Shown here piece by piece: positions 13,101 to 41,265 of a DNA stretch of 64,000 nucleotides. The stretch lies in NCBI GenBank assembly GCA_973895155.1, contig OZ316894.1:5170944-5234943 (forward strand). Reading direction: 5' to 3'. Each line of letters opens with the position of its first letter. Positions within the stretch are counted from its first letter, which is position 1. Position numbers and translations under genes: made by a program. Below the pieces are notes generated by a model. That model did no database searches and had not been told where the DNA came from. It saw only the letters and a list, made by a program, of their open reading frames with translations. This DNA comes from Marsupella aquatica. Taxonomy: Eukaryota > Plantae > Marchantiophyta.

Positions 13101-13215
13101 TGCTCAATTTGCGCTGGCCCCACTTGAGTTCCATAGTTGAATTCATTCTCTTCGTGCCCACCATCTTCCGCTGTTCTCTGTTTCTCCCATTCTGCCTGTG
13201 CTGATAGGAAAGTAG
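7121..13215 (-). mobile_element. L1-clade LINE retrotransposon, 5'-truncated, 10-bp TSD TGGAGAGCTT
   Basis: TSD at 7111-7120 and 13216-13225; empty site near 37723-37732; ORF1 and ORF2 on the minus strand. Confidence 0.92.
7384..11328 (-). pseudogene. LINE ORF2 (AP endonuclease, reverse transcriptase, zf-RVT), frameshifted
   Basis: SWNVCGL, LQEVK, DFN and SDHDP (EN); WRPLTMLN, GVRQGCPLSPLLF and FADD (RT); CHVC...ESIPHLFFGC (zf-RVT), spread over five ORF fragments. Confidence 0.93.
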
Positions 13216-14920: not shown

Positions 14921-15567
14921 CAGTATCCCTCACCTTAAGAGCTTCGAAGGGAAATCTCACATTGAAGAGATTCTTATTAGGTTTTGAATTAGCAGCGCAG
15001 CGTCAAAGGGCAAGAGAAAGTTGTAGTTGCACATCAACTTCGCAATAGTTGAGGCTCCACTTCAGGTTTAGGTAGTGCCATCAAATCGACATAGGCAGTC
15101 ACAATAGGTGACTTATTACTTAAACGTATTGCACTTCAGCAAAGGGTTTTTCTACCTACCTGAATACGGCATTCGTGAGAGCATTTTCACACTCTGCTCC
15201 ACTTTTGTACATTTTGAGAAAGATGAATGATAGCACACACTTTTCTGTATATGATGAGTAACTATTGCCTTCACGTTTTGGCCAGAGTGCCCCTCTCGAG
15301 ATTGGATGCAAATAGATTTTCAATTGCAATTGCAAGACAGATGTGATGCCATCAAATCACATTTTATTATAGACAAAGCAGACTCTAAACAATGAATAAA
15401 CTAGGTATCACAAGTCCTGATTTCCCACATAGTCAAAACGGTGGCCCTGTCCTTTCAGGGACCAAAGGTGTGATACCAGGTCATTTCTCAACGAAAAATG
15501 AGTTTCAGCATCTTCAATGGCTCGTGTAGTAGCCAAGTATTCCGCCCAATTCTGCCTACCAAGGTCT

Positions 15568-15910
15568 TGTTAGGTATTTACTCAAGGTCTAGGGTTATGA
15601 CATGTAACCATAGTTAGACTAACCGTAGTCGGAGACGTGGTTAGGTTAACTAGGATGCACACTATATGCCAAGCGATGTTTGCTTGGATAAGTGGAACTT
15701 AGGCTCATTATTATGGAGCCACTTGAGAGATGAGGAGAGCTTACACTGTGGAGACTTGGTATGGTCGATGGGCTTAGAGTTCAGTAAAGCTCTCTTGTGT
15801 GTTCCCGTGGACGTAGCCTCGAGGAGATGAAACACATATATCTTGTGTCGACTACTTGCGCGTTGGATGTGTCATGTGCTTATCGTTACGAGTGTCGTCT
15901 ATGCTCAACA
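15568..15910 (+). mobile_element. 5' LTR (343 bp) of an LTR retrotransposon, probably Copia
   Basis: Starts tgttagg exactly where Harbinger homology breaks, ends ctcaaca, followed by a PBS. Confidence 0.85.
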
Positions 15911-18749: not shown

Positions 18750-20042
18750 AGCTATCCAACACCAAGCGCGCGCAAGCTCTCCTCCTGCCCTCCCTCACTT
18801 CAAAAAACGTCGAATGGGCCTCATAACCCGGCAGGAAGGTCCAAATGCCCAGACAAAACACATTTGCGACGCAGTCCGCATCGCAATTTGCAAATCAGCC
18901 CGCTTCGCAACTAGTATCTCAACTTTCCAAAACCAATGCGAAACCACACGCTTCGCAAAGCCTTCGCAAAGCTGTAGAGACGCGAAAAAACGCTCTCGGG
19001 CTCTGTTTTTCCGAAGCTATTGCGAAACATTTTGCTTCGCAAATAATGTGACCAAATTCTGAAGCAGGTTGCGAAGCAGGTCGGTTCTCAATATCGTGGC
19101 AATTCTTGGCGAAATTTTTTTTCACATTCTTTCCCTCCTCCTTTTGTTTAGGCCATGTAAGTTATACTATGCCTTTTTGTGTAATTAAGAAATTCCGCCG
19201 TTTCAAATCCCGGCGTTTGTTAGGGTTGGGTCTTGGATGAAGCTGGTTTTTTTAGGGGTTAAAAGCGAGATTACCAGTCAAACCTTCCGTTTTTTAAGCT
19301 ATACATGGTGTGGGTGTAGGCTAATTTTGATAAGAGTTGGGTTTTGGTTTAAAATTAATAAGTGAGGAAAGGGTTTAGGATTAAAGTTGGGTTTGGGTTT
19401 AGGGTTTAAGTCTTTAATTTTGGGTTTAAGCAGGGTTTGCATTTATGGTTGTAGGCTTTTAGGGTTCAAGCAAGGGTTTAGGGTTTAAAACAAAAGAGAG
19501 GAAGGGGATTGGGAGTGAGGGTCTAGGTTTTTGTAATAGGTCAGAGGTTTGGGGTTGAGGGTTTGGAAAAGGCAAAGCAAGGTTAGATGAGATTAATGTT
19601 TTAGTTGTTTTACCATGGGTTTTATGGGTTTTAATGGGTTTTATGGATCTTTTGGGTTTTAATGGTTTTTCCATGGGTTTTATGCTAACAAAGGAGGAGG
19701 AGCTATGACAACTTGCAGGGTGCGGCACTTTTGCATGAATTGATACTAGCTAATGCGTATGCATCGTGAGAGCCCGGGCATCTGGAGGTACAGACTAAAA
19801 TAGATGGGTCTAGTTAGGCTTATTCATGTAATTAAAATTTTTGGTTCCCACTATCTATAAAGAGGACATGTATGTAAGGTGTTCGCTTTGTGTACTTGCA
19901 GCTTTTCTCATACTTCCAGATTCGGTTCATTATTTTAGAGCCACAAGACCTATTGGCACCGCTGAGCCTGGGTCTCAGAAAGGTATTTTTTAGTGTTCCT
20001 TTTGTGTTTGGTTTCATGTCATCATTACTTGAGAACTTACAT

Positions 20043-22051
20043 TGTAGTATTGTACTAAGGACATAAATCAACATTTAATGTCCAAAACTCGGTATTCGAT
20101 CCCATGGAAGAACAAGAAAGGAATGATTTTCTATCGTTTAACACTTATGAATGACTAAGGTCACAAAAAACACAGGTTTGAGCCTTTTACTATGATTGCT
20201 CAGCAAGGCATAGATTTGAATGTTTGCTTAACATTGTAAATGCAATTAATAAAATGGAAACAAATAACAAAACACAATGAAATTTTGAGGTATGATGAGG
20301 GAGTCTGGAAAACACCAAGGTAACTTCTCATCAATACTTCATTTGATGTGATTTGGGTGGTATATCCGTAAGAACATTTTTGGAATGGTTTACTGTACTA
20401 GGATGATTACTAAAATGCCGTCAACACGTCTCAACTTTTCCTTCCAAAGGTACTCAGAAGAAACTAGTAATCAATCACTTCGATATCCAGTCGGTACTCT
20501 GAGTCACGAATAATAAACACCATCATGATCAAATTGAAGTCACAGGTAATTGGTGAGTAACAATCTTTGCATCCCATGCACAAGCAATGTCACGCCAAAA
20601 ACTATGCATCAAGAACTCAAGAAGATGGGTTGTCACCACTTAAGGAATCTATTCCCTTATACTTCTGAGATTCAACTTCATACAAGTAATTTTACTTCAA
20701 TGATCTAAACTCTCAATCATTCAGACCAAGGAAGGGAGAAGAATTCCTTTTGCATTTGCAAGCAAAGGTGATTCCAGTGCTGCAGCACATGCCACAGGCA
20801 CTACTTTATTTCTTCACACATGAAAATGACACAAATTCTACTTCATATAGGTTAGCAGGAACCCAAGGAGACTGAGATACTGAAAGGACATGCCCTTTCA
20901 TATCTAAAGGGTCTTGAATAAACTTAATAACGATCATCCTTGAAAAGTGAATGGACACTGCTGAAAGTGTCAAAAATGCAGGGGACGCTTCTCAAAGCGT
21001 CGAGGTTTGAGCGGACGCTTTGCAAAGCGTCGGTGTTTGCGGTAAAACTAATAAACAGTGATATTAATCTAATTTTAACTTCTAAACTAAGAGGCGGAAG
21101 GAGTTGAAACTTTTCTAGGGTACTCTACTACATATAGTCTATATGCTGGCAAAGTTTCAGACTTTTCTGAGATCACTAAGTGTCTCAAATAAATCGGTAA
21201 AAGTGGCGCGGTGTTATAAAAGTGCGAAAACTGAAAAATTTTCTAAGTGTCGGGAACATAGTGGACGCTTTAGAAAGCGTCCAAACCTACAAAGGACTTT
21301 TATGGACGCTTCAGAAAGCGTCGGCTGAATTTCGAGGTTTGGTCGTAGCGTCCGTCTTCTGGGCTCCGGGCGGGACGCTTCAGTGGGCGTCACAGTGTCG
21401 AGGTCACCTTCGGGGTAGCAGACGCTTCTGTGGGCGTCGCTCCTCATGTGGATTGCAGAGCGTCGGAGTACAACTGGTTGGGTGGTGGACGCTTCAGAAA
21501 GCGTCGTGGTCTTTGGGTGGACGCTTTTCAAAGCGTCCAAAAATACAAGGGACGCTTTACAAAGCGTCGGCGAAGTCGCGGCTATGCAAAAAACAGCAAA
21601 ACTAAATTAATTCTAACTTTCAAACCACATGTCGGTTTGAGATGAAACTTGCAGGGATGATTCTACTACGCAACTACTACCTCCTGAAAAAGTATGAGAC
21701 TTTTCTGACCATGATAGCTATTTAACTAAAATAGCAGAGATCGGCTGATTGTGATAATTGTATACAGAGCTCATTCTTGTTGAAAAAGTGTTTTGGAGGC
21801 CGGTTCTTGAATCTTCTAGTCTGCATTGCTTCTCCAATGATGTCCAGTCTTCTTTCTTGGTAGCATGTAAAGAACAAGGATTTATATTGGCGATCCTTGT
21901 CCAATACAATAGCCTCCGATGAAGCATAACATTAGGTTAAGTGTTCAGTTGATCTAAATTGCTATAAAAGGTAACTAGATTGTACCTTGAGTTAGAAAAA
22001 GTTTAAAATTTATAAAATTTCCATCATTTCTAACTAATGTACAGCATTACA
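20043..22051 (-). mobile_element. Family C TG...CA unit (solo-LTR-like, 2009 bp) with TSD TACAT
   Basis: Near-identical inverted copy of 58816-60823. TACAT at 20038-20042 and 22052-22056. Imperfect terminal inverted repeat tgtaatgctgtac / gtacaatactaca. Strand is relative to the other copy. Confidence 0.88.
20983..21570. repeat. Array of about nine 18-bp palindromes GACGCTT-N4-AAGCGTC
   Basis: e.g. gacgcttctcaaagcgtc, gacgctttgcaaagcgtc, gacgctttagaaagcgtc, gacgcttcagaaagcgtc; mirrored at ~59298-59883. Confidence 0.9.
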
Positions 22052-22129
22052 TACATTTGTCCAGCTTGATATTGTGATGTTATTTGGTAATAACCCCTAA
22101 CTTGCAAATTATACATCTTTGTAGGGGCA

Positions 22130-22740: not shown

Positions 22741-25700
22741 TGTGATGCCTAGACAGGAATCACTCGGCCAGTTAAGTGGGTAAAGCAGGAAGGCACCCTA
22801 GGAACACCTTAGTATAGGGACAAAACAAGGAAAATATAAACCATTAGGGGCAACCATGGAACCCGGGCCGAGGCCGGAGGTAAGGACGCTGAGGGTGAAA
22901 AATCAATTAGGGTTAGGGCGCATTAAGTGTCGGCGGCTAGGAAGGATCAACGGGAAGAAGGACCGGCAGAAGAGAGGGGTAAGGAGCGCTTGCAGGAGAT
23001 GGTGGCTCATTTGCGAGCACGAACTAGGCAGACGACTACGGGAGGCCAACTACTGTCAGCTGCTTAGGCAAGCACTCGGGGAGAGAGTAGATACCGATGA
23101 TCGACCTAAGGAGGGTATGAGCAACGTCAATCAAGCGGCACATTTCTGGGGATGCCTGTTCGAACGGGCAACTGAGTACATCAAGACTTACGAGGACGAG
23201 GAATCAGAAAGGGCAGCTCGAGAATGGCAGGAGCTCGCTCGATTGTGGGAGCTGTAGAAGACGGCTTTCTTAGAAGGCGAACTCATCAAGGACGAGTTCC
23301 TGTGGACGCCTACTTCCAATCAACTCGACGATCTTCTGTTTTGCAAAGACAACGTCGTCGGCATCCGAGAGGCCATCAAGAACTGCAACGACATACACTG
23401 GGAATTAAAGGGTAGCACGGAAAGGTGGACCCAGGCAACGGTGCTAGGAGAAACCTCCACGGCAGCAGAGATGAAGAGGAAGGGAGCCATCAACGATGAA
23501 GCCACCCCGGCAAAAAGAACGAGGTCGGCGGCACCAAAGAAGCCAGCCGAGCAGCAGAGCAGGAGGCAGGGAGAAGCCGAAGAGGAGGAGGTTGATCCCA
23601 TCAAGGCCATTCCAACCAGGGATGACACCTGGAAGGGCTGGGCGGCAACCCTACCGGTGGAGGTGCAACTACATTTTGCACGGGAGGAGGATGCATGCTT
23701 CACGGCCATGCAGACCAAGAAGTACCAAGGCTTCATGGCCGGATCCGGCTTAGAGGCCTTTGTAAGATTACCATGGCTGAAGCCGGAGGTACCGGAGTCA
23801 GACCTATTAGAATTCGTGGGGTCATGGGAACCCGAGACCAATTGCACGAGGATATATGGGAAGGATTTCTATCTTACTCCCAAGGTAATTGCCGAAGTGT
23901 TTAGCTTGCCGATAGGCAATAAGACCAAAGTTGATACCAGGAAGACCTTGCCTGACAAGGAGTTCCGGTCGTTCCCCGGGCCATCAACGAAGAATGGCTT
24001 CTTCCGGAACACCTGCACCAACCCGCACATAGGAGAGATGATCGACTTCTTGCGGGTGACCATGCATTGTAACTTGCCAAGGGCAGAGATCGGCAAGGCA
24101 CAGGTCTATCTGGCAGAAAGGCCAGACCCAAGCCGGGACTACAACGGGTACCTCCTCAACCAATTGAAGAAGCTCTTAAAGGAGGAGCAACAGGTAATCG
24201 GCATGGGGAGCGTATCGCGGCTTGGCTATCACATGCCGCTGTTGTGCCGGTATGCCAGAGGTCAGACTTTTGCCCCGGTACTTCCCCTGCAGGTAAGGGC
24301 ACCCGAGGAAGCTCCAACGCCGAGGCCGTTGGCTGAGAAGCCTCAACCACCTGTTAGCCCTACGATCGAGCAGGTGTTTAGGCCCAGGAAGGAGGACTTG
24401 CCGATGCAACAACCAGGCATGCAGAGTCTGCTGAAACTACTGGAGAACGAAAAGAAATCGGCATCGGCAACAACAACAGCAACGACAACAATGCAGGACA
24501 CTACTACAGAGGTAGGCCTACACCGGCTCACAAGAGAAAACCCCTTTGCTGGAGACAAGAAGAGAATCAGGCCGGAATCCAAGCCTGGTGTTCGAATGTA
24601 TGTGGGAATCTCAAGCTCCGAATCTGAGGCAGAATTGCCTGAAGCTCCTACCGACGAAGAGGAGAGGGAGAAGCCGGACGGCCAAGAAGTAGAGGAGGCA
24701 GTGGAGGACTGCAGCCATGATAATTCCGGCTATGGGTCGGACCATCACGTCCCAGGAGTAAGGACCTGTGGCCGGTTTGTCCCCACACTTCCAAGGGTAG
24801 TGCGAGGGGACCCCAACCAGCAGAGTAGCCCTGAGTCTCCCCCACCAGATGTTGCTCCCCCGAGCTTCGACAGCATAAAACAGACGGTGCAGGAATTTCA
24901 GGAGCGAATCAAGCAGGAAGAGGAGGCAGCCCTGGCTAGGGAAAAGGATTTACCAGGAGGAGATTGGCCGGAGGACATCAGGCGGCTAGCCAAAAAAGGA
25001 AGCAAACCTCTAGCCACGATTGAAGAGATCCGCAAGACGGCTTGGGAGCAGAGGCCGCGATGGGCGATGCCGATTACTTCTACTTACTCCACCTACGCTA
25101 AGAATAGAGCCATGGAGTATGGTGAGATGTGTGGGGAACTTGCGCTCGGCATCTTTGGAGAGGAGTTGGACGTAGGACCCTTTTTCCATAGGGAGCAGTT
25201 GGAGAAGCACCAATTAGAAGAAGCGGTGGCTTTAGAGAGAAGCAAGAAGGACGAGGTCATTCGGCGGCTTAGGAGGATGGAAGCCGAGATTGAAGATCTA
25301 AGGGCGGCCAAGAAAGCCCAAGATGAACTGCGGATTAAACGACATGAGCTGAACATCATGCAGGGGCAGTTGGACACCGCGCAGGCTGATAATCAGAATA
25401 TCAAGGATAAACTGACTCAGATGCAGGGAGAGTTGGCCGACACAATCAAAGAGAGGGAGAAGTGGAAGCAAGAGCTGAAGAATACAGAGGAGGCCCACAT
25501 AACAACCAACAGCCGGGCCATGGCGGAGACCCAAAGAAAGGAATGGGCGTTGAAGGGGGAGCTCAAGAAAATCCGCAGAGCCCTTGAGCAGAAGGAGGCC
25601 GAGTTAGGGAAATCCTATCAAGGGATTATGGCGCTGCAGCAGGAGCTTGCGTCCCTGACGGCCAGCTTCAAGGCCGACCTAAGGGAGAAGGACGAGATGC

Positions 25701-27403
25701 TCGAACAGACTTACGCCAAGATGAACCAGATGGAGTCTGTCATCATTGCAGAGCTCGACAAGGAGCTAAGAGCAACCCAGGAGGAGAGGACTACCTTGAA
25801 ACAAGAACGGGAGGAAGCCCAGAAGGAACTAGAGGAGGCACGCAAGGACCTGGATGAGACCCAGGAGGAGTTGGAGGAAATCACGAGGAAGATGGAGAAC
25901 CTCCAGCGGCGGGCCGACAACCAAACGGAGCGGCTGAAGAAACAAGCCGCAGTATTTAAGTGCTTGTCTTCATCAGGCCCAACTCCAATTGGGGCAACCA
26001 AGTTACCAGGAGTGGTACTGGCCGAAGAAAAAGCCGCGCCACCTGCACCAGTGCCGGAAGTAAGTGGGAAGGGGAAGGGACCAGCTGCCGAACCAGAAAA
26101 GAAGAAGAAGCAGAAACCTTCAGGGTCAAGGAGTAATCCGACTCCACAAGCCGTGGTGACCAAGGAGGTAGAACCAGCACCATCCTCCGACATGAATACG
26201 GCAATAGATCCCGCTATCATCACAGGTGGGGGTGGTGCGGCCCAAGCCGAACTACTCAGTAATGAGGCCGGTATCCCAGATCCGCCTCTTGAGCAGGCCG
26301 GGGAGACCCAAGCCGTGGCTGAGGCCGTAACCGGTTCCCGAGCCGATGCCGACGCCGATGGTGGACCCAGTCAGGCCGATGGAGAGTTGACTCAGTCAAG
26401 GGCAGGTAATCTGTCAGAGAATGAACCTACGGCAGTGGCTGAGGAGGAAGCGTTGTGGGCGTCCATTAAGGATCCACCACCGGTGTTGTGACGGTGCAAG
26501 GGCGTCGTTCCTTTTAGGGAGGGCGGACGTGGAGGGAGGAGGCGTGAGTGGGCAGGGCGGGCGCTGATCTCCAAGTTTAGGATTAGGATCAGGACCAGGA
26601 GCGGCCCTGACACTTAGCTTAGTGGGATTGCGGTTCCACTGGTAGGAGCAACACTTGTGCTCCTGCCTTGCTGTACATAGGTAGATTCGGGCAAGTAGAT
26701 TACTGTTAAGTAGATTAGGCTTACGATGCAAAGAATGGCGGATCCACTACCAGGATAAGTACCTGGGCAGCGGGGAGCTCAGGGCCTCTTCTTTAGCAAG
26801 TTTTTAGTTTGCACCAGCCGGGCTGGGATCAAGTAGTACGAGAAGCTCTCGGTTAGTCATACAGTGACCCTTGTGTATATTCATGTTTCCTCATGCCTAA
26901 GAGCTGAATAGAGTTGGCCTCACGGCTTAGTTCGCAGAACTTGTGTATGAGATGTACTGTTTGTATGGCAAGTGCATGGTATGACTCAATCAGAATGAGT
27001 CATTTTGCTATTTGTGTGTCGCATTAACTTTTGTGAAGAGTGCCCACATCAACCAAAAGGAAGGAAAGTAAGCAAGGGAGTGAGAGTTGGATGTGTCGAG
27101 CTGAGAGAGGTCTTAGCGGCTTAACCAAGCCTATTGGGGATCATTCCGGCGGTGGAATCCAAACATACCTAACAAGACAGAGGGGAAGACAGGGGAAGGC
27201 CTAGATTAGGCCGGCTACGTATCTCATGACCCGATGAAGGATCTGTCCAGTATATGTGTGTAAAATGTTAATAGTAGTAGTAGAAGGTTAGCAGCGTCCC
27301 ATGCCGCTAAGCCGCGGAAACGGCCTCGCCAAGCGCGAAACCTGCGGGAATCGGCTTGAGCTGGGGGGTTTCTTGGGTTTAGGGAGCCATGGGACGCACC
27401 ACA
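22741..27403 (+). mobile_element. Family B TG...CA unit (4663 bp), copy 1, with non-matching flanks
   Basis: Termini tgtgatgcc...gcaccaca as in 31166-35993; flanks CGGAT and CGCCC differ. Confidence 0.88.
22856..26491 (+). pseudogene. ~1211-codon ORF of unit B (PMD/Athila-ORF1-like motif plus long coiled coil) with one premature TAG at 23255
   Basis: ORFs 22856..23257 and 23441..26491 share a frame and are separated only by TAG (CAG in copy 2); FYLTPKVIAEVFSLP motif; SMC-like coiled coil; KGKGP and KKKK basic motifs. Confidence 0.75.
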
Positions 27404-28316
27404 CGCCCCGTTTTGGGGGATTTAATTTCCCACCCGGCAGCCTCACTCACCGCCAGCCCCACTCGCGGCTCACGAGAGGGTTTAATACCCCCCCACTTTA
27501 CTCGCCCCTCTCTTTGGGGCCTGGCTCCTGGTACGCCTTCCGTAGCGCTCCCCCTGGTATGGGGAATTAAATTCCCCCCCCTCCCTTTACTCCACTCATG
27601 GGAGAGTTAATACCCTCCCGACTCCTTCCTCCTCCTTGGCTGCGGCCCGGCTGCCCTCGCCCCGGCTGCCCTGGCTCCGGCTCACCTTGGCTCGCCCCGG
27701 CTCCAGCTGACCTTAAAATGGCACGCGGCCCTATGCAGGTCGCGCACTCATTTTATTTTATTTTTGGGGGGGGGGGAATTTTAACCCCTCCGGCTCACCC
27801 CCGCTCGTGGTCTCACCTACGCCCTGGCCAAGCCTGCCACTCGCGGTGGCCCTTCAAACGGGGGATTTAATTCCCCCCGTCCTCCTCCTGCACGCGGTCC
27901 TATGCAGGGCTCGCGGCAGCCTCCTCCGTGCCCAGCCCGGCTCATGCCCCCTTACTCCCGAGGTCACGCCCTCCGAAAAAACTTCCCCAGGGCTACGTCC
28001 ACTGTCGGGGTCACCTTTACTCATGAAAAAAAACTTCCTTGCTCCCGGTCATGTTTTATTTCTTCTTCCCATCAACCTTGCTATTGAGGTCTCTAAAAAT
28101 GGCCATAAAATAATGGGGAGTCCCCCAAAGGCAGGGCCCTCCGCCCAACATATTTGCAGAACAATTAGGGGATAAAAATAAATACAGTTCTTCGGTCACA
28201 AGTGATAGAATTAACTTTTTTTTTTTTGAAAAAATGCTTATTTACAATGGTTATTTACACTGCGCAACACTCCGCGACCATTATTCATGATTTTGAGTGA
28301 CGGGGACCCCGTCACA
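27404..28316 (-). mobile_element. Partial inverted family A unit (5' ~0.9 kb)
   Basis: Reverse complement resembles 3050-3935; terminus ...ggggaccccgtcaca at 28316 abuts Copia RT. Confidence 0.8.
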
Positions 28317-29743
28317 TTGTACAAGAAGAAGCAGGATGGCATTTACAAGGCACGCCTTGTGGCCAAAGGGTACACCCAAAAGGAGGGTTTGGACTACACA
28401 AAGATTTTCTCGTGACCAGTTGTCAAACTCGCCACTATCCGTGTTTTACTTGCGATTGTGGCATTCTATGATCTTGAGTTAGATCAGATGGATGTAATTA
28501 CTGCTTTCCTCATGGATTGCTTGATGTGGAGATTTATATGACTCAACCTCCAGGATTTATAGACGAGAACACAAGACACTTGGTATGTAAGCTCTTGCGC
28601 TCGTTATACGGATTGAAGCAGAGTCCCAGACAATGGAATAAGCATTTTGATTCCTTCATGTTATCTCAAGGGTTCACAAGGAGTGAACATGATTGCTGTA
28701 TTTACATGAAGGAGGTGGAGAATTGCTCACGCTTTGGTTACATTGTGCTGGCACTATATGTGGATGACATGCTAATCCTGGCTGAGAATAAGCCTGATGT
28801 TGCCCATCTGAAAGCAATGTTGAGTAAGGAGTTTTCAATGAAGGACTTGGGTCAGGCCAAGAAGATTCTAGGGATGGAGATTCATCGTGACAGGGAGCAG
28901 AGACAATTATGGTTGTCTCAAAGGCAGTATTTGGAGAAGGTACTTGCCAAGTATGGAATGGAGAATGCAAAACCAGTTGGTACTCCATTGGCTTCCCACT
29001 TTAAACTCTCAAAGAATGATTGCCCTTCTAGTGAGAGTGATAGACTGGCGATGAAACATGTTCCCTATGATAGTGTTGTGGGTAGTTTGATGTATGCGAT
29101 GACATGCACTAGACCTGACATTGCCCACGTTGTTAGCATTTTGAGCAGATTTATGGCAAATCCTGGTAAGCTTCACTGGGAAGCAGTGAAGTGGGTTTTG
29201 TGGTATCTGAAAGGTACCTTAGATTGTGGGATCTTATTTGACGGTAAAATAGACTCTACATTAGAGTTGGAAGGTTTTGTAGATTCAGATTATGCTGGTA
29301 ACTTGGATAACAGAAAGTCTACTACAGGCTATGTGTTTATGCTGGGTGGAGGTTGTATTAGCTGGAAGTCAGCAACTCAATCCTGTGTTGCATTGTCTAC
29401 TACTGAGGCTGAGTACATGGCTGCCTGTGAGGCAACCAAGGAGCTGATCTGGCTACGGAGATTGGTGAGTGATCTGGGTCTTTCACCTGAAAGACCGGTG
29501 CTGCTGTGTGACAGTCAAAGTGCTTTGCATCTGGCTAAGAACCATGTGGTCCATGCCAGGACAAAGCATATTGATATTTGTTATCACTTCATCCGTGAGG
29601 TGATTGAGACGAAGCAGATGTTTCTAGAGAAAGGGGCTTCAGAGGAGAATGCAGCAGACATGCTTACCAAAGTTTTACCTACCAGTAGCTTTAGTCATTG
29701 TGTGAATATTATTAATGTTAGGGCCAAACCGAAGACTATGTAG
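28317..29743 (+). pseudogene. Ty1/Copia pol C-terminal part (RT plus RNase H), Tnt1-like
   Basis: YKARLVAKG, SLYGLKQSPRQW, LYVDDML, TRPDIA, VDSDYAG, STTEAEY, RTKHID; disrupted near 28411-28500. Confidence 0.95.
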
Positions 29744-29810
29744 ATATGATACTTAGTTACATATTGTATATCACCTAACTCATTGTGTGAACTGGAGTCA
29801 AGGTGGAGAT

Positions 29811-30104
29811 TGTTAGGAATTGACTCGAGTTCCCGGCTTAGTTAGTTTGGCCTTACTAGGGTTAGTTAACCCTGGATTACATTAGGATAAGATCCGCTTA
29901 GTTTAGGCCCACACATCTTGGCCCCCTTGGGGGGTATAGGTTGGAGGGAGAGCTTTCTCTCCCTCATTCTTCACATGTACTTCTCATGAGCTATGGATCC
30001 TTCAGGAGTTTCTCCATTGCACGGTGTCTTGTTGGTGTAGTGTGAGATTGAGTGCTTTCATGTTCCGCATTGCTGTCTAGTACATGAGCCGACGATTTCT
30101 TACA
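29811..30104 (+). mobile_element. Copia 3' LTR (294 bp) preceded by a polypurine tract
   Basis: PPT-like ggagtcaaggtggagat, then tgttagg...tttcttaca; duplication copy 2 starts immediately after. Confidence 0.85.
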
Positions 30105-31165
30105 GTTATGACACTCAATGTCATGTTAGTTGCATTGCTTGGTCTGGGAGTAAGGACGAGTGGAAAGGTAGTTGAACACCTGAGTCGCAAGTATGACCTA
30201 TTGATCACTCAACCTGGCAATTAAAGATTTGCTCTGGAGTTAAGCTATGAAGCTACAAAGTACTCTGTAGGTAATGTTTTGCGTGTTAAGTTGAAGTAAC
30301 AGGTATGCCCTTTTGAGAGGTTTGGAAAATCCTCCCCATTTGTTGAGAAGAAATGAACTGCCTCTAATATATCTTTTCAAGTTAGCAAAACCCTTGAAGG
30401 AGGGCTTGCTATGTGCATGGTTAACCAATTTCAGAGGAGAAGCAAAGTGAGATCTTACCAGGGTAATTTCTAGGGTGTTTTTGTTGATTTGCCTAGGCAG
30501 TGAATGTTACCATGTGTCAAGGAGGAGATGCTAGAAAATTGATGTGTCCATCCAAGTACCATTGTCAAACATTTTTGTCCGTCCCGCTTCCACTTCCAAA
30601 AAATGTTCTATTGATCTTTTTCATGGTTTCTTTCCTTTCTTTACGATCCTAGTGGAAATTACTAATCTGCCCCCAAAACTAAACTAATTATCAGATTGCC
30701 CCCATTTCGTGTACTGGCTGGCTTAGCTTGACTATACTGACCCCAAGATTACTGGCATGCCAATGGGTTGCACCCCACTTAAACGGCTGGAGGGGGTTAG
30801 CTTGGACAAATTATGTGCCTCAAACTATGAGCCTCCGTCCACTTGTCCCCAGACAAAATACGTGGCATCTTGGGCTTGTCTAGTCTGGCTGAGCCAAACC
30901 ACATACAAAATGGGGGATCCTGGTGATGCATTAGTTTTGGAGGCAGGTTATTAAATCTTCATATTTTCATTTGAGTTCAAACTCAATTACCTACTGTCTT
31001 CCGGGGTCATTCAAGGGGGCATTCTCTTCATATAGAAAGTCAGGACCTTCAATTTGAGTTTCAACAGTAAATATTGAAACATTTTTCTGTTGTAGGTCAA
31101 ACTGACCTACCAACTTCCCCTGAACAGGTGGCCCAGGCGTTGTATTCGAATAGTGCATGAGGGGG

Positions 31166-34100
31166 TGTGATGCCTAGCCAGGAATCACTGGGCTAGTTTA
31201 AAGTAGAAAAGGGAAGTGTACCCTAGAAACACCTTAGTATAGTTACAAAAATGAGGAAAATATAAACAATTAAGGGTGACTATGGAACCCAAGCCGAGGC
31301 CGGAAGTAAGGATGCCAGGGGAGAGAACACGATTAGGGTTAGGGCACGCTAAGTGCCGGCGGCTAGGGGTCACCAACAGGAAAGAAAAGTCGAGGAGGAG
31401 AGGGGTAAGGACCGCTCGCGAGGAATTGTGGCTCATTTGCAGGCACGAATTGGGCAGACGACTACGGGCGGGCAACTACTATCAACTGCTTAGGCAAGCA
31501 CGTAGGGTGGGAGTAGATACCAGCTATCAAACTCGATTAGGGTATGAGCAACGTCAATCAAGCGGCACATTTTTGGGGATGCCTGTTCAAACGGGCAACT
31601 GAGTACATTGGTACTTACGAGGACGAAGAGTCGGAGAGAGCAGCTCGAGAACGGCAGGAGCTCGCTCGATTGTGGGAGCTGCAGAAAGCTGCCTTCTTAG
31701 GAGGAGAACTCATCAAGGCCGAATTCTTATGGACTCCTACTACCAATCAACTCGACGACCTTCTGTTTTGTGAAGACAGAGTCGTCGGCATCCGCGAAGC
31801 CATCAAACGCTGCAACGACCTACACTGGGAGTTGAAGGGTAGCACGGAGGGGTGGACAAAGGCAACCGTGCTCGGAGAGACATCCACGGCAGCCGAGATG
31901 AAGAGGAAGGGAAATAACCATGACGAGGCCACCCCGGCAAAAAGAACAAGGTCGGCGGCACCAAAGAAACCAGCCGAATAGCAGAGCAGGAGGCAAAGAG
32001 AAGCCGAGGAGGAGGAGGTCGACCCCATCAACGCCGTTCCAACGAGAGATGACACCTGGAAAGGCTGGGCGGCGATCCTCCCCGAGGAGGTCCAATTACA
32101 CTTTGCTAGGGAGGAGGATGCATGCTTTACGGCTATGCAGACTCGGAAGTATTAGGGCTTCATGGCCGGATCCGGCTTGGAAGCCTTTGTAAGGTTACCG
32201 TGGCTGAAGCCGGAGGTGCCGAATTCAGACTTACTTGAATTCGTGGGATCATGGGAGTTCGAGACCAATTCCACAAGGGTGTATAGGAAGGATTTCTATC
32301 TCACTCCCCAGGTGATTGCCGAAGTGTTTGGGTTGCCAATGGGCAATAAGACCAAGGTAGATACTAGGAAGACCTTGCCAGACACGGAGTTCAGGTCGTT
32401 TCCAGGGCCTTCAACGAAGAATGGCTTCTTTCGTAGCACTTGCACCAACCCGCATATAGGAGAGATGATCGATTTCTTGCGGGTAACCATGCATTGCAAC
32501 TGGCCGAGAGCAGAGATCGGCAAGGCACAGGTCTATCTGGCAGAGAGGCCAGACCCAAGTCAGGACTACAATGGTTACCTCCTCACTCAACTGAAGAAGA
32601 TCTTGAAGGAGGAACAGCTGGTGATCGGCAAGGGAAGCGTGTCCCGGCTTGGTTATCACATGCCGCTATTGTGCCGGTATGCCCGGAGTAAGACCTTTGC
32701 CCCGGTACTTCCCCTACAGGAAAGGGCACCAGAGGAGGTTCCGGAACAGAGGCCGGCAACGGAGAAACCCAACCCGCCCGACAGTCCTACAATTGAGCAG
32801 GTGTTTAGGCCGAGGACGGAGGACTTGCCGATGCAGCAACCAGGCATGCAGAATCTGCTGAAACTGCTGGAGAAAGAGAAGAGAACGACTACGGCATCGG
32901 CAACAACAACAACAACGACAACGGCAACAATGCAGGACACTACTCAAGAGGTAGGCCTAAACCGGCTTACAAGGGAAAACCCCTTTACTGGAGCCAAGGA
33001 GAGAAAGAGGCCGGAACACGAGCCGGGAGTCCGGATGTATGTAGGAGCCTCTAGTCCCGAGGCCGAAGAGAAGCAGGCCGTAGCTCCCGGCCACGACAAG
33101 AAGAACAAGAGATCAACACGGAAGCCGGAGGAGGAACCAAGACCGGCAAGTGGTGAAGCCATGTTCACGACAAAGCCAGGAGAACAGCAGGAGAAGCCAG
33201 TAGTCCAAGCCGAAGAGGAGGCGGTGGAGGACTACAGCAATGATAACTCCGGCTATGGGTCAGATCATCATGTTCCAGGAGTAAGGACCTGTGGCCGGTT
33301 CATCCCCACGCTCCCAAGAGTAGTCCGAGGAGACCCGAGCCAGCAGAGCAGCCCCGAGTCTCCCCCGCCAGATGTCGCTCCCCCGAGCTTTGACGGCATA
33401 AAACAGACGGCGCAGGAATTCCAGGAGCGAATCAGGGAGGAAGAGGAGGCAGCCCTGGCTAGGGAGAAGGATTTACCAGGAGGAGAATGGCCAGAGGACA
33501 TCAGGCGGCTTGCAGAAAAACGAAGCAGCCCGCCAGCCACAATAGAAGAGATCCGCAAGGCGGCTTGGGAACAAAGGCCGCGGTGGATGATGCCAATGAC
33601 TGCTACTTCCTCCACCTACGCTAAAAATAGAGCCATGGAGTACAGGGAGATGTGTGGAGAGCTGGCGCTCAGCATCTTTGGGGAGGAGTTGGAGCAGGGA
33701 CCCTTTTTCCAGAGGGAGATGTTGGAGAAGCGCCAATTAGAAGAAGTGGTGGCTTTGGAAAGAAGCAAGAAGGACGAGGTCATCCGTCGGCTTAGGGAAA
33801 GGGAAGCCGAAATCAAGGATCTGAGGACGGCCAAGAAAGCCCAAGATGAGCTGCGGATTAAGCGGCATGAGCTAAATATCATGCAGGGCCAGTTGGATAC
33901 CGCACAGTCAAACAACCGGATTATCGAGAATAAACTGACTCGAACCTTAGATGAGTTGGCCGATGCGATCAAGGAGCGGGAGAAGTGGAAGCGAGAGCTG
34001 AGGAATGCAGAGGAGGCCCACATAACAGCCAACAACCGGGCCATGGCAGAGACCCAAAGAAAGGAATGGGCGTTGAAGGGGGAGCTCGAGAAAATCCGCG

Positions 34101-35993
34101 GAGCCCTTGAGCAGAAGGAGGCCGAGTTAGGGAAATCCTATCAAGGGATTATTGCGCTACAGTAGGAGCTTGCGTCCCTGACGGCCAGCTTCAAGGCCGA
34201 CCTACGGGAGAAGGACAATATGCTCGATCAGACTTATGCCAAGATGAACCAGATGGAGTCTGTCATCATTGCAGAGCTTGATAAGGAGTTAAGAGCAACT
34301 CGGGAGGAGAGAGCTGCGTTTAAGAAGGAATTGGAGGAAGCCCACAGGGAGCTGGAGGAAGCCCAGAAAGAACTGGAGGAGGCGCGCAAGGACCTGGACG
34401 AAGTACAGGAGGAGTTGGAGGAAAGCACGCGGAAGCTGGAGAACTTACAGCGGCGAGCCGACAACCAATCGGAGCGGCTGAAGAAACAAGCCGCAGTATT
34501 TAAATGCTTGGCTTCATCAGGACCAACTCCAATTGGGGCCACCAAGTTACCAGGAGTGGTACTGGCCGAAGAACAAGCCGCGCCACTTGCACCAGTGCCG
34601 GATGTAAGTGGGAAGGGGAAGGGACCAGTTGCCGAACCAGAAAAGAAGAAGAAGCGAAAACCTTCAGGGTCAAAGAGTAATACGGCTCCACAAGCCGTGG
34701 TGACCAAGGAGGTAGACCCAGCACCGACCCCAGGCAGGGTCACGGCAGAGAATCCAAAAATAACTACCCTAGAAGGAGGGGACGGCAAAGCCAAGGCCAG
34801 GATCTCGGTAATGAAGCCGAGGTACCAAATCCGCCACTTGAGTGTGCAAGAGAGGCCGTAGCCGATGCAGAGGCCATAGCCGATGCAGAGGCCATAGCCG
34901 ATGCCAAGGCAGAAGCCGATGCCAAGGCAGAAGCCGATGGTGGACCCAGTCAGGCCGATGGAGAGTTGACTAAGTCCAGGGCAGGTAATCTGTCAGAGAA
35001 CAAACCCATGGCAGTGGCTGAGGAGGGAGCGTTGGGGGCGTCCACTGAGGAACAGACACCGCTGCCATGACGGTGGTGGAGGGCCGCTCCTTTCAAGGAG
35101 GGCGGACGTGGAGGGAGGAGGCGTGAGTGGGCAGGGCGGGCTCGAATCTCTAAGTTCAGGATTAGGATTAGGATCAGGACCAGGAGGCGGCCCTGACTCT
35201 TAGCTTAGTGGGATTGCGGTTCCACTGGTAAGAGCAACACTTGTACTCCTGCCTCGCTGTACAAAGGTAGATTTACAAAGGTAGATTCAGATAAGTAGAT
35301 TAGGCTTACGCTGCAAGGAATTAGGCGGATCCACTACCAGAATAAGTACCTGGGCTGCGGGGAGCTCAGGGCCTCTTCTTTAGCAAGTTTTTAGTTGCAC
35401 CAGCCGGGCTGGGATCAAGTAGTAAGAGAAGCTCTCGGTTAGTCATACAGTGACCCTTGTGTATATTCATGTTTCCTCATGCCTAAGAGCTGAATAGAGT
35501 TGGCCTCACGGCTTAGTTCGCAGAGCTTGTGTATGAGATGTACTGTTTGTATGGCAAGTGCATGGTATGACTCAGTCAGAAGGAGTCATTTTGCTATTCG
35601 TGTGTCGCATTAACTTGTGTGAAGAGTGCCCACATCAACTAATAGGGAAGGAAAGTAAGCAAGGGAGTGAGAGTTGGATGTGTCGAGCTGAGAGAGGTCT
35701 TAGCGGCTTAACCAAGCCTATTGGGGATTATTCCGGCGGCGGAATCCAAATATACCTAACCAGAAGGAGGGGAAGACAAGGGAAGGCCTAGATTAGGCCG
35801 GCTACGTATCTCATGACCCGATGAAGGATCTGTCCAGTATATGTGTGTAAAATGTTAATAGTAGTAGTAGAAGGAAGTTAGCAGCGTCCCATGCCGCTAA
35901 GCCACAAAAACGGCCTAGCCAAGCGCGAAACCTGCGGGAATCGGCTTGTGCTGGGGGGTTTCTTGGGTTTAGGGAGCCATGGGACGCACCACA
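31166..35993 (+). mobile_element. Family B TG...CA unit (solo-LTR-like, 4828 bp), copy 2, TSD GGGGG
   Basis: GGGGG at 31161-31165 and 35994-35998; empty site catgaggggggagttc at ~1907-1922; terminal inverted match 7/8. Confidence 0.9.
31282..35070 (+). pseudogene. Unit B long ORF, copy 2 (three stops, two frameshifts)
   Basis: ORF pieces 31276..31602, 31544..31981, 32162..34165 and 34220..34861 are colinear with 22856-26491. Confidence 0.8.
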
Positions 35994-37006
35994 GGGGGGA
36001 GTTCTACTGAAATCAAAAGCCCAACGATAGACCTTCTATTTGCCTTTTTCAAACAGTAAGTTCTGGCAAGAATCATATAGAGCCCTGTTTGAAACATGGC
36101 TTAGAACTTTTCTAATGGAGACAAGGCCAAGTTTGTCTCGATCACTACATTGAAGGCAAAGATTGCATGTGCAAACATAACAACAAAAATTCAATTCACT
36201 TCATATACCAGGCCTATGTTCTAACACAAAGTCCAGGTGTTCTATTACAAGATAGCCTCATGTTTTAAGAGATAACACTTTTTGTCGGACTCCGTGTTTC
36301 TGTAATTTTTCAACTCTACAATGCATGTTACAATCTAACAGTTTGAAATCCTCATTTCCATCAATTTTGGGAAAGATGGACTTAACCAAGTCCCTCCTAC
36401 GTCTTGTGGACTAGATGGGCACCATAGATGGATTTTAGACTTAACCAGCCGGTGGAATGTCCATAGTAGTTGAGATGTCATTACACCTCACACTTGAACG
36501 CAGTCAACACCAGGTTCTTCTCCACTACGCAGGGTGCGACCACTTGACTCAGAGCACAACCCTGCTTTGGGAAGACTTAATATTTTACTGGTTACAAAAT
36601 GACCCCTGTTGGAGCTGAGAATTGCTTGGTATGATCTATGAAGTTCAAGCTACTTAACAAAAAATGTTTTGTACATTTCCAACACTCAATCCTATATACT
36701 CAAAATCATGCCTAATCTGGCTTCATAGTGCATAATTATGTAGGACTCCACATAGCCAGCCAGTTTGCTAAGAGCATCCCCACCGGACGCGGAAAATACG
36801 GGGGCAAATAGCTGCCCGGTGAGGGTTTTACGGCAGGGAAGACTATGGGGGGATATCTTCATCCCCACCGGGACACGGTATTTTTAAAAACACCATCCCG
36901 TCTTGCCAAAATAGACCTCCCGCGTGGCATTTTGCTGCGCACTACCCCTGCCCGCTCAAACACTCCATTTGAATCGCACGGAGGAGAGTTGTGGATCTGG
37001 GAAGAA

Positions 37007-38042
37007 ATGGACGGCTCTGCCTTCACTAGGGGGGTGCCATCCTTGTGGTGGAACTGGAGGACTATCGATAGACTGGTGGAACTGTGTTGCTACAGGTATG
37101 TGTGTTGTGTAGAAATTGCACGATAGAGAGCCTGCGGTACGTTCCCCTCGTGACCAGAGATAGCAACAATGGCAGACGCAACCAAAGCAAGAGGCAGAAT
37201 TTCTCATCTGCAGAGTTGAAGCAGTTGGTTTGTTCGTGGATGCATGTCTTGCAAGACCCAATCATCGGATCTGGGCAAAAGAATGGAGCATTTGGGATCG
37301 AACTACAATCCACTACAACGACAATCGACCAAAGGACACACAGAAGAGGAACTGTTGATGGAGAGCAAGTGGAGCGACTTGAAACACGACGTTGCCAAGT
37401 TTTCAGGGTCGTATGCATCTGTAGTTTGATGCTCGTCATTCCGGTGAGAATGAGGAAGATACTGTGGCCAGGGCAAAGGAGTTGTATGTGAAAAAACATC
37501 CGAAGGCAAAGGATTTCAGCTACCTTGACCAGTGCTATTTGTTGAAAGACTGTCCTAGATTTGCAATGACTATGGATGACATGAAGCAAAAAGTTGCACA
37601 AAAGAAGGCTAGGAAGCATAAGGGAAAGGGAAAGGGCTTCCCTGATGACAAAGAGAATGAGTCTCCGGATGCAGAGTGTGGTGGAGAGCAGGTTGAGAAT
37701 GAGCAAGGCCAAAGGCAGAGCACTAGAGAGCTTGATCAAGAGAGTACCCATTTTGGTGAGTTGAGGCCACTAGGGAATAAGAATGCAAAGAAGCAGAAAG
37801 TTGATGAATGCAGCTCAAGAATGGCAGCCTATGCACAAAGAGATATGGCAGAAATCAGTGCTAGGCTATTGAAGCTTGCAGAATCGCAAGACAAGCAAAA
37901 TTTATTCACACTCAGGCTTTGTGACATTGATGAGGACTGCCGAGACTACTTCATCAAGAGTAGACAGAAGGAAATGAGTTGCCATGTTGAAGCTGCAGAG
38001 GGAGGAGGAGGAAGAAGAGAGAGCTGCAGCTCGAGCTCTTGA
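37007..38042 (+). pseudogene. Harbinger Myb/SANT-like gene, frameshifted
   Basis: FSSAELKQLVCSW..QDPIIGSGQK, SKWSDLKHDVAKF and RPLGNKNAKK motifs in different frames; start approximate. Confidence 0.75.
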
Positions 38043-39034
38043 GGTTGCTTTTAGGCGAGCTGCAACCCGAACCCCTATACCAACTCCGGTTGCAGCACCT
38101 CATTCCCCCCCAGGTGATGTTGATAATGCCCCTCAGGAGAGTGCACCTGAAAATGTACAAGGGCACAACATTCCCATGAGGATACCTACAGAGAATTTGG
38201 TTAACTATGGCAACCCACCTCTGAATTTCAGTAACTGGAATTCATTCCATGGTGCAACACCATATGTACCTGATACCCCATAAACAAATCCACAGGCTTC
38301 CTATGGATTTAGATCTATGCTTGCAGAAATTGACCGTGACCTAGCACACAATCCGTAGTCCCTTTGGCTGAACCTATAGCACAATTTGTAATTGCCTCTT
38401 GAGATTGAGGATATGCAATTGAGAATGAGTTCCACATTTTAATTTTGCGTACTCAATAATACCAACTGAATTCATGAGTGAGTCAAAAAAGATGCAATTA
38501 TAATGATGTACAAACTCAAATTAGATAATTGCAATTGAAATTTTTTTTGACTCAGTCATGAATTCAGTTGGTATATTTTTTTACAAAATTCTAGTTGTGA
38601 TCACAAGCAATGGCATTTCAAATATGCACCATTGTATCACCTGCGCTAGTACAGACAAGTCACTTTGGTAATACCCCCAGTAATGTGTATGTTTTCAGGG
38701 CATTTAATGAGTAGAGGCAAGTCACATCAGCCGAGACTATCTCGTGTGTGTACATTCAGAGCACCTTCAGAAGCCACGAGTCTGGGCATTGGAATTGTGA
38801 AGGTCCTTTTTGTGCATTCATTGGCACAACTGTGAACCTGCCTAGCACGAAGTACTTTGTTATGGGCCATGGCAGATTCGCCCTAGAAATGCTTCGGGAG
38901 CTGAGTCGTCTCTCTCATTCTTCCTACAAGTTCTTCCTTGCTGTGCAGTCAGGCTGTCTTTTCCATGGAGCTTTGTTGTGCACAATTTGCATTTGCGGGG
39001 CTGGGCAATCAAGGTCAACTTTTCAATCTGCAAA

Positions 39035-39448
39035 ATGCCTCTGAAGCGAGTGACAATGGCCGAAAAGGTCCTCACCATGGCTCCTTCTTGTGAACTTCTG
39101 CAGGCAACCCATGAGCAGCAACAACAGGACCCCTCCTCCGCCGATGGGAACATCATGCCGGTTGTGGCTGATTCTCCAGAGGAGCCTTTTCCTGATGAGG
39201 ACCCGGTTGCGCTTGATCATGAGCGAAGGAGAGTGGATAGGATCATGCAAATGATCCAGCACCCGGAAGAGGAAGAGGCTGGAGCAGCACGGAAGAAGAA
39301 GAGGGAAGCTCGACTAAAGAGAATTGAGAAGAGCCAGGAGAGGCGAGCAGAAAAGGCCAGGGAAGAGGAGATTGAGCATGACAGTGAGGGCAGTGATGGG
39401 GATGGCCGTCTAATTGATGGAGTTTGCTGGCAGTATCCCTCACCTTAA
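39035..39448 (+). CDS. Small charged ORF inside Harbinger copy 2
   Basis: Paralog of 14525..14920. Confidence 0.35.
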   Translation: MPLKRVTMAEKVLTMAPSCELLQATHEQQQQDPSSADGNIMPVVADSPEEPFPDEDPVALDHERRRVDRIMQMIQHPEEEEAGAARKKKREARLKRIEKSQERRAEKAREEEIEHDSEGSDGDGRLIDGVCWQYPSP

Positions 39449-40029
39449 GAGCTTCGAAGGGCAATCTCACATTGCAGCGATTCTTATTAGGTTTTGAATT
39501 AGCAGCGCAGCGTTGAAGGGCAAGAGAAAGTTGTAGTTGCGCATCAACTTCGCCATTGAGGCTCCACTTCAGGTTTAGGTAGTGCCATCAAATCGACATA
39601 GGCAGTCACAATAGGTGACTTATTACTTAAACATTTTGCACTTCAGCGAAGGGTTTTTCTACCTACCTGAATACGGCATTCGTGAGAGCATTTTCACAGA
39701 CTCTGCTCCACTTTTGTACATTTTGAGAAAGATGAATGATAGCACACACTTTTCTGTATATGATGAGTAACTATTGCCTTCACATTTTGGCCAGAGTGCC
39801 CCTCTCGAGATTGGATGCAAATAGATTTTCAATTGCAATTGCAAGACAGATGTGATGCCATCAAATCACATTTTATTATAGACAAAGCAGACTCTGAACA
39901 ATGAATAAACTAGGTATCACAAGTCCTGATTTCCCACATAGTCAAAACGGTGGCCCTGTCCTTTCAGGGACCAAAGGTGTGATACCAGGTCATTCTCAAC
40001 GAAAAATGAGTTTCAGCATCTTCAATGGC

Positions 40030-41265
40030 TCATGTAGCAGCCAAGTATTCCACCCAATCCTGCCTACCAAGGTCTTTTCCAGCTTGAGCTCTAGCTCTGT
40101 CTAAGAAGTCCCAATCAGCAGACAATCTATCACCTCTCTCATCCTCCACAATCATGTTATGTAAAATGACACAAGCCAGAAGGATGTCCTTGATTTCATG
40201 TTGATAGTGCATTCGAACTGGGTTCTTCACAATTGCAAATCACTGGTGCAAAACACCAAAAACCCTCTCAACATCCTTCCGGGCCCCCTCTTGGCACTTA
40301 GCAAACCATTTTCTGGCATTTCCTTGTGGCAGTTGAATAGTTTTAATGAAGATAGACCAGTCTGGATAAATGCCATCAGTGAGCAAATAATACCTACCAT
40401 AGTGGCGATCATTCACAATAAAACCAACCTCATTAGCTTCACTTCTCAGGAAATTGTTGATCAAAGGGGAATGATCCAGCACATTCAAGTCGTTGTTTCC
40501 ACCAGGCAATCCAAAGTAGGCATGCCAAATCCACAGGGATTGATCTACTATGGCCTCCAAAACAATGGATTTCTTTCTGTCCCTTTTGGCAAAGAGCCCT
40601 TGCCAAGTCACGGGACAATTCTTCCACTCGTAGTGTATACAATCCAGAGATGTAAACATGCTAGGGAAACCACGTTGTTCATTGATTTGTAATTGATTGA
40701 TGATGTCCTCCTTGGTGGGCTGTCTGAGGTACTCCTCCTCATAATGCTCTCTAACAACAGAACAAAATTGCTTCAAGCATTTCATGGCAGTGCTCTCTCC
40801 AATCCGCACATATTCATCAAGGGCATCAGCAGAGACACCCAATGAACACATCCTTAAAGCAGCAGTCAATTTTTGGATTGAAGATAATACAAGAATTCCT
40901 GCAACATTTCATTTTTGGATGAAATACGGATCGACCTTGCACATAGCATCATGAATTCGCCAAAAGAGAGGTCTTCTCATTCTATACCTTCTTCTGAAAT
41001 GTCTGTCAGTGTAGATTGGAGAGTCAGCGAAATAATCCTTCCAAATTCGCTCATGGCCTTGTGCTCTGTCCCGATCAATGTCCCTTCCCTTTCCTGGCCT
41101 TGATCCACCTCACTTCCTTGGGCCCTGTTCATAGTTGTTAATAACTGACCCTGCCACCACAACAGTCTCCCACCATGTTTGCTCCTCATTATCCCATTCT
41201 TGATAAGCTTGCTCGATCTGCCTCTTCAAGTTATTTCTCCATTGTATGAGTCGGTTGGATGCCAT
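40030..41265 (-). pseudogene. Harbinger DDE transposase (HARBI1/Plant_tran-like), frameshifted
   Basis: RGFPSMFTSLDCIHYEWKNCP, LWIWHAYFGLPGGNNDLNVLD, YYLLTDGIYP, RKDVERVFGVL, ACVILHNMIVEDE. Confidence 0.92.

Follow-up and report, generated by a model that had tools for sequence, protein, structure and literature searches.

Gene-bearing TG...CA repeat units in the liverwort Marsupella aquatica, probable solo long terminal repeats of a Ty3/Gypsy element

Two TG...CA units and their insertion sites

The window analysed here is a 64,000-nucleotide stretch of the Marsupella aquatica genome (Marchantiophyta; GenBank assembly GCA_973895155.1, contig OZ316894.1, positions 5,170,944 to 5,234,943, forward strand), and our subject is a repeat family, family B, of which the window holds two units, both on the + strand: copy 1 at 22741-27403 (4,663 bp) and copy 2 at 31166-35993 (4,828 bp). 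A TG...CA unit that is flanked by a target site duplication (TSD) and is mostly one selected gene is a real, well-supported oddity. The two copies are 84-87% identical in a self-comparison of the window, both start with TGTGATGC and finish with GCACCACA, and their coordinates and TG...CA ends are exactly those given in a first-pass annotation made from the sequence alone. The terminal inverted repeat (TIR) matches at 7 of 8 bp in both copies. Short internal long terminal repeats (LTRs) or long TIRs, which the first-pass annotation had named as grounds for abandoning its proposal, were absent from the units in repeat and inverted-pair comparisons. Direct-repeat comparison of the first and last 800 bp of the unit scored 20-21, below the shuffled maximum of 27; copy 2 has no terminal inverted pair of at least 14 nt, and in copy 1 only one local inverted match exceeds the shuffles (score 35), and it lies in the interior rather than at the termini.

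Copy 2 is a clean insertion. Its TSD, GGGGG, lies at 31161-31165 on the left (+ strand) and at 35994-35998 on the right, and the host segment that it cuts is duplicated at 840-15568 with 94-96% identity, where the empty site is a run of 6 G at 1912-1917 (+). The filled site holds 5 + 6 G against 6 G in the empty site, so copy 2 adds exactly 5 G; the TSD length was read from the empty site because the TSD falls in a G run. This count bears out the 5-bp TSD and the empty site near 1912 reported earlier. The segments 840-15568 and 30105-40076 form a local segmental duplication (94-96%) in which each copy took different insertions, which is why clean empty sites are available for family B as well as for a second unit family (family A) and a long interspersed nuclear element (LINE) described below. 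Additionally, the empty allele, seen as joints skipping 4,832-4,833 bases, was present in all four public Logan runs examined, which represent at most four samples from two studies, one of them possibly the window's own source.

Copy 1 lacks a TSD and is bordered by two unrelated elements. On its left it interrupts the exon-like reading frame of another element; on its right the sequence starts inside a truncated family A unit in reverse orientation (27404-28316, - strand), and that unit sits in a copia pol frame. We infer that copy 1 is a recombinant solo LTR that arose between elements, for which a missing TSD is expected. Solo LTRs without TSDs are described as products of unequal recombination (PMC7251063); the pattern of copy 1 matches this description and comes with a marked step in divergence at 26707.

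In public sequence data, family B was found on 13,407, 23,908, 6,777 and 9,367 contigs in the four Logan runs, counts from which no copy number is derivable; the family is large and diverse, since every run yields thousands of contigs. The right end of the unit is joined to other places inside the unit in 4 of the 12 joint rows listed and thus recurs as an insertion junction. These joints probably represent insertions of the unit into other family copies. No loose end at the unit terminus was present among the 24 listed of about 2,200. Searches for the terminal motif and for unit loci in metagenome, prokaryotic-genome and viral collections gave 0 motif matches, with 0 of 94 and 0 of 5 stretches confirmed.

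A single gene under purifying selection

The main open reading frame (ORF) of family B has no introns, is present in high copy and evolved under purifying selection. It covers 23117-26491 (+; 1,124 codons) in copy 1, with one premature stop at 23255, and 31544-35070 (+) in copy 2, where stops interrupt it at 31979, 32153 and 34163 and the tail is frameshifted near 34804. The ratio of nonsynonymous to synonymous substitution rates (dN/dS) between the copies is 0.211 (95% confidence interval, CI, 0.17-0.26; 1,116 codons from 23117), and the same residue is encoded at 873 of 1,045 aligned codons. By region, the ratio is lowest in the core (0.087), followed by the N-terminal domain (0.137) and the coiled coil (0.184), and rises to 0.71 in the tail. 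The other two + frames gave control values of 1.0 and 1.6 and the - frames 1.0, 1.8 and 0.28, where the 0.28 frame mirrors the sense frame on the opposite strand. Indels in multiples of three make up five of the six inside the ORF versus one of the eight outside (Fisher p 0.026). None of the premature stops, one in copy 1 and three in copy 2, is common to both copies. Because of the selection signal and the unshared stops, the lineages leading to both copies appear to have replicated with a working gene, with decay following insertion; the two window copies are decaying.

The synonymous bias that the first-pass annotation saw in a short stretch therefore holds across the whole ORF: the ratio is 0.21 rather than near 1, the value named as fatal to the idea, and the claim that each copy carries its own stops is confirmed. 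Its placement of the ORF start, 115 bp from the terminus so that the ORF filled 78% of the unit, needs correction, as the supported gene runs from 23117 to 26491 and fills 72%. The 87 codons upstream (22856-23116, +) are stop-free in both copies and may represent either a 5' leader or a fast-evolving extension. Their dN/dS is 1.18 (CI 0.61-2.64), without a selection signal, and in copy 2 they do not share the reading frame of the main ORF; for both reasons we do not accept the ATG at 22856 as the start of the gene under selection. This upstream frame (22856-23116; 31282-31602 in copy 2) is rich in R and K, retains motifs such as ICxHELGRRLR, and may be an upstream ORF or a fast-evolving extension.

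The non-coding parts of the unit are also structured. A TATAAA box at 22835-22840 (+; copy 2 at 31261), nt 95 of the unit, is kept in both copies and is the putative promoter of the ORF. About 900 non-coding bases lie between the stop codon and the unit end. Within them, divergence between the copies drops at 26707 from 621 of 3,964 positions (15.7%) to 24 of 696 (3.4%), with a changepoint log-likelihood gain of 48.5, which delimits a conserved 3' segment (26707-27403, +). This segment contains a conserved TATA-like TATATG at 27251-27256 (+; copy 2 at 35838), a putative genomic-RNA promoter about 30 nt before a terminal, rod-like and possibly U5-like hairpin (27284-27403; copy 2 at 35871-35993; assigned to neither strand). 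The last 115-120 nt fold with z -4.26 and -4.74 on the + strand and -3.65 and -4.27 on the - strand, 0 of 200 shuffles being as good, and the hairpin is the strongest fold among 76 windows along copy 1. The opposite unit end folds no better than shuffles. The hairpin has no Rfam match, and an ARAGORN scan gave no tRNA.

The encoded protein and its relatives

The protein combines a globular core with a coiled coil and disordered linkers and contains basic motifs resembling nuclear localization signals. Its conserved N-terminal domain of about 110 aa (23117-23446, +; dN/dS 0.14) yielded one homologue (P0005, 37% over 84 aa). The core of 217 aa (23630-24280, +; dN/dS 0.087) is tentatively predicted to be PMD/VANC/Athila-ORF1-like, and the long coiled-coil-like region (25217-25981, +; dN/dS 0.18) consists of E, K, R and Q to 45%, with a 21-bp heptad repeat in copy 2 at 34323-34441. 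Pfam scans of three ORF pieces of the unit returned no gag, reverse transcriptase (RT) or integrase, as the first-pass annotation had claimed; the Pfam matches that do occur are weak, sub-threshold and confined to the coiled-coil part. A gag reading was ruled out, with neither a gag nor a zinc-knuckle match in Pfam, and an env-like identity was rejected because the protein has no hydrophobic stretch (19-residue Kyte-Doolittle mean maximum 0.83), hence no transmembrane segment. No host-gene family matching the core was found.

Relatives of this protein that are named to species come only from Calypogeia. A phmmer search with the first 360 residues after the stop against 1.84 billion representatives gave 21 matches, of which 20 were kept and one (P0008, a bacterial repeat protein) was dropped. 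The 20 clusters looked up comprised four from Calypogeia fissa, one JGI "hypothetical protein", 14 unnamed Logan proteins and the one dropped protein. The Calypogeia homologues include CAM6082161, CAM6090539, CAM6122807 and CAM6082591. Several long homologues, inspected by eye, show the same arrangement as the window protein, with a core, an acidic linker and a coiled coil. Word-indexed homologue searches retained 0 of 711, 0 of 5,769 and 2 of 7,864 candidates, the two both from Calypogeia and with no Pfam domain listed; searches of this kind are weak evidence and leave fused forms possible.

The pattern of the core motif presumably resembles those of Athila ORF1 (PF03078), the Ogre PMD extra ORF (PF10536) and Transposase_32 (PF20167). 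An Atlas query with the homologue P0016, not with the window protein itself, returned two unnamed clusters first and then PF20167 (0.84) and PF03078 (0.83), both below the threshold of 0.9 and to be read as leads only. Two AlphaFold models reached mean pLDDT values of 62.5 and 51.5, the second being worse than the first. In VIA-align, VANC21 (9lnk_A) ranked first of 48,161 chains for both of these low-confidence models, with noise-level Z-scores of 3.4 (root-mean-square deviation 5.5, 148 residues aligned) and 3.6 (5.1, 142 aligned); the longest alignments in the other rows were 112 and 91 residues, respectively. The match is suggestive because it agrees with prior expectation, not because of its score. 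VANC21 of VANDAL (MuDR) elements and the MAIN/MAIL PMD proteins share with the family B protein the combination of a globular domain and a coiled coil. However, VANC21 aligns with it at only 7-8% identity, and VANC is described as dicot- and MuDR-specific (PMC13547354). Structural similarity between VANC and PMD is described, as are models in which VANC and Athila proteins oligomerise via coiled coils (PMC13547354, bioRxiv 2024.09.27.615353). On balance, the family B protein is likely to act in the nucleus as a DNA-binding factor that oligomerises and belongs to the PMD/VANC/Athila-ORF1 fold group. That it counters silencing of its own family is a more tentative prediction, possible but short of likely.

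Origin of the units, their neighbours and what they may mean

Both family B units are probably solo LTRs of a Ty3/Gypsy element, whose LTR of about 4.7 kb would carry an accessory gene in its U3 part. They have the TG...CA ends with a short inverted repeat, the 5-bp TSD (copy 2), and neither gag-pol nor an internal pair of terminal repeats. A giant coding LTR is favoured over a single-unit element because of the TSD-less recombinant copy, the U5-like terminal hairpin and the lack of TIRs. These were the two branches of the first-pass annotation, and the first is preferred, although a paired copy with an internal region was not seen.

An integrase would have inserted a two-LTR element and generated the TSD; LTR-LTR recombination would then have removed the inside, leaving copy 2 with its TSD, and recombination between two separate insertions would account for the flanks of copy 1, which do not match. 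If the element is on the + strand, the ORF would be served by a TATA box (near nt 95) and a 3' untranslated region of its own, all within a U3 of about 4.5 kb holding a separately promoted gene, and the genomic RNA would start about 30 nt past the TATA-like box at 27251, making the hairpin R-U5. This orientation is only slightly favoured over the reverse, in which an antisense Retand-like ORF would have been absorbed into U3 and which fits nearly as well. Reverse transcription would copy U3, gene included, into both LTRs, and any intact solo LTR would amount to an expression cassette that stands alone. The protein would, by analogy with VANC and PMD, act on its own family as a DNA-binding coiled-coil oligomer.

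Several observations weigh against this reading. No copy was seen next to a primer-binding site, a polypurine tract or gag-pol, both window copies being without an internal region, and no sequence is shared between the family B unit and the Gypsy pol fragment at 54.1-56.6 kb. The conserved 3' segment could stem from a recent crossover rather than from constraint on R-U5. The hairpin folds on both strands, and G-U counts pick neither. For the protein, Pfam was negative for the core in all 20 alignment members, save one unrelated weak match; the earlier hunch of a PMD/Athila-ORF1-like domain is backed weakly by the convergent Atlas and VANC21 leads. Foldseek gave no match for the first model at E<=0.001 in the pdb and viral sets. 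The VANC21 Z-scores of 3.4-3.6 lie below the 7-8 that is the tool's usual chance best, filovirus VP30 ties VANC21 in the second run, and a PDB sequence search gave two chance hits only. Attempts to link family B to the Gypsy pol of the window or to family A failed, with no DNA or protein similarity.

The best-surviving alternative, although improbable, is a stand-alone non-autonomous DNA element that holds only the accessory gene and is moved in trans by an integrase-like transposase of the Ginger, TDD or GingerRoot type. Both window copies are single units; integrase-like transposases likewise leave TG...CA ends and a short TSD, and a VANC/PMD-type accessory gene is typical of DNA transposons. 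It is weakly favoured by the lack of any head-to-tail or internal-region joint among the 15 listed of 86 joints and the 24 listed of about 2,200 loose ends. Ginger, TDD and GingerRoot elements carry TIRs of tens to hundreds of bp. No such TIRs occur in family B, where the inverted repeat is limited to the terminal 7 of 8 bp and copy 2 lacks terminal inverted pairs of 14 nt or more. Moreover, the two ends differ, since only one of them forms the 115-nt hairpin, and Pfam finds no integrase-like DDE transposase inside the unit.

Still less probable is a special case of the solo-LTR reading, weighed separately here, in which the unit is the LTR of a non-autonomous parent resembling a large retrotransposon derivative (LARD) or a terminal-repeat retrotransposon in miniature (TRIM). 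Such a parent, coding for little or nothing between its LTRs, would contribute just the LTR gene, borrow a helper gag-pol and possibly prime itself from the terminal hairpin. Very long LTRs around a short inside would collapse easily to solos, and both copies are solo; a survey predicts self-priming for 12% of plant elements, bryophyte Tcn1 among them (PMC6317226), and the hairpin starts about 30 nt past a TATA-like box. However, no internal region of any kind was seen, and extra ORFs of this kind belong to tRNA-primed lineages of the OTA superclade (PMC6317226). The unit as a complete TRIM or LARD was ruled out, as it contains no two short direct repeats. That the unit is a short-LTR element with an internal deletion, or a host gene that was captured, so that the ORF was never inside an LTR, is very improbable and largely refuted already: the extra ORFs of described plant families do sit between the LTRs (PMC7264820, PMC3485330), but direct terminal repeats are absent, the boundaries are identical in both copies, the ORF is intronless and high-copy, and its core matches no host-gene family.

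Compared with known systems, family B stands apart in the placement of its ORF. Non-chromovirus Gypsy elements are marked by extra ORFs with domains of the PMD, TRP28 or Athila-ORF1 type and by LTRs that can reach about 5 kb (PMC6317226), and extra ORFs are common in plant Gypsy elements, where their described position is either upstream of gag or between pol and the 3' LTR (PMC7264820, PMC6317226, PMC11963269, PMC3485330). The antisense ORFs of Retand, Grande and RIRE2 resemble ours in being long accessory ORFs whose products combine a small globular domain and a coiled coil with low-complexity linkers, and they have their own promoter and are kept in most copies (PMC7264820, PMC11963269); TRP28 with an SMC-like coiled coil is found in Retand extra ORFs (PMC11963269). 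Unlike the family B ORF, which is inside the TG...CA unit, they lie between pol and the 3' LTR, and their LTRs measure 0.4-1.2 kb (PMC11963269) versus about 4.7 kb for the family B unit. The Retand domain PF04195 is not matched by the family B protein, and Retand is reported from flowering plants only. Athila ORF1 and Transposase_32 have the sub-threshold Atlas scores, and LTRs in the OTA superclade reach about 5 kb (PMC6317226), but the Pfam domains of Athila, Ogre and Transposase_32 have no match in the window protein or its homologues. The extra ORF of the OTA superclade (Athila/Tat/Ogre/Retand) sits between the LTRs, whereas that of family B is wholly inside the unit; because of this placement we do not assign family B to Athila, Ogre or Retand, although the gene probably functions as OTA accessory genes do. 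Retrosat2, RIRE3 and RIRE8 have LTRs over 3 kb, an extra ORF and a ratio of solo LTRs to full elements of 2.6:1 (PMC3485330). However, their ORF0 lies upstream of gag-pol and is not described within the LTR (PMC3485330), so their solos would carry no gene.

Genes within an LTR occur in animal retroviruses, in which the sag ORF of mouse mammary tumour virus and the lentiviral nef ORF lie in or overlap U3. They too are protein-coding genes duplicated along with the LTR, but the proteins are unrelated and the ORFs are about one quarter the length of the family B ORF. No plant element with a long ORF inside its LTR was found in the literature, supplements and subscription papers being outside the scope and the REXdb additional files (PMC6317226) possibly listing some, and the available sections of two liverwort-related papers (PMC12885004, PMC13468544) do not mention coding LTRs. 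A gene inside the LTR is most likely a new arrangement within the Ty3/Gypsy organisation.

The rest of the window is rich in other elements. A second solo-LTR-like TG...CA unit, that of family A, lies at 3050-6524 (+; 3,475 bp) with the TSD TTCCC and an empty site near 37142. This unit, which is not similar to family B, likewise contains a coiled-coil ORF, broken and with a basic motif (about 4266-5422); LTR-like units with coding capacity may thus be habitual in this genome. The LINE at 7121-13217 (-) has an 8-bp TSD (GAGAGCTT), an empty site near 37726, an ORF1 with DUF4283 and a zinc knuckle (Pfam) and, by eye, pieces of an endonuclease-RT ORF2. Two inverted 2-kb copies at 20040-22055 and 58812-60826, 99% identical and with 1.2 kb of internal inverted similarity, look by eye like a non-autonomous DNA element of recent origin; the first copy is the immediate upstream neighbour of the exon-like frame interrupted by family B copy 1. 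The 3' half of a copia element (RVT_2, Pfam) occupies 28317-30104, with an LTR of about 290 bp ending at 30104, and a PIF/Harbinger-type transposase fragment (PF04827) lies at 40240-40908 (-). The gene at 41728-47192 (-) encodes an alpha/beta-hydrolase, NB-ARC and long leucine-rich repeats (LRR) according to Pfam and is an HNL-type nucleotide-binding leucine-rich repeat receptor (NLR); hydrolase-NB-ARC-LRR NLRs are linked to bryophytes. Together with the Calypogeia relatives of the family B protein, this gene points to a bryophyte, probably a liverwort. A truncated Gypsy RT-RNase H-integrase at 54066-56620, Athila/Tat-like by eye, is followed at 56792-57577 by 4.9 copies of a 161-bp tandem repeat. 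A 162-bp centromeric satellite is reported for Marchantia (PMC12885004), a comparison by length only.

Solo-LTR formation is the main route by which plants delete retrotransposon genes. If the solo-LTR reading of family B is true, an LTR that is 72% one selected gene would survive this purge, and the deletion products would become sources of an element-encoded regulator. A more far-reaching scenario, which we regard as rather unlikely, is that a liverwort-type Ty3/Gypsy lineage transferred a whole VANC/PMD-like gene for an anti-silencing protein of 1,100 residues into its LTR. Each element would then carry two copies of the gene, solo LTRs, usually the end point of purging by the host, would persist as self-contained genes and protect the family in trans, and the parent may have been little beyond two LTRs and hairpin-primed. 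Units of this kind would be misfiled both by LTR finders with the usual length caps and by gene predictors. The solo-LTR reading would also extend the PMD/VANC-like accessory group to bryophyte retroelements, and the role of plant Gypsy extra ORFs would become directly testable, because gene, promoter and likely target share one 4.7-kb unit.

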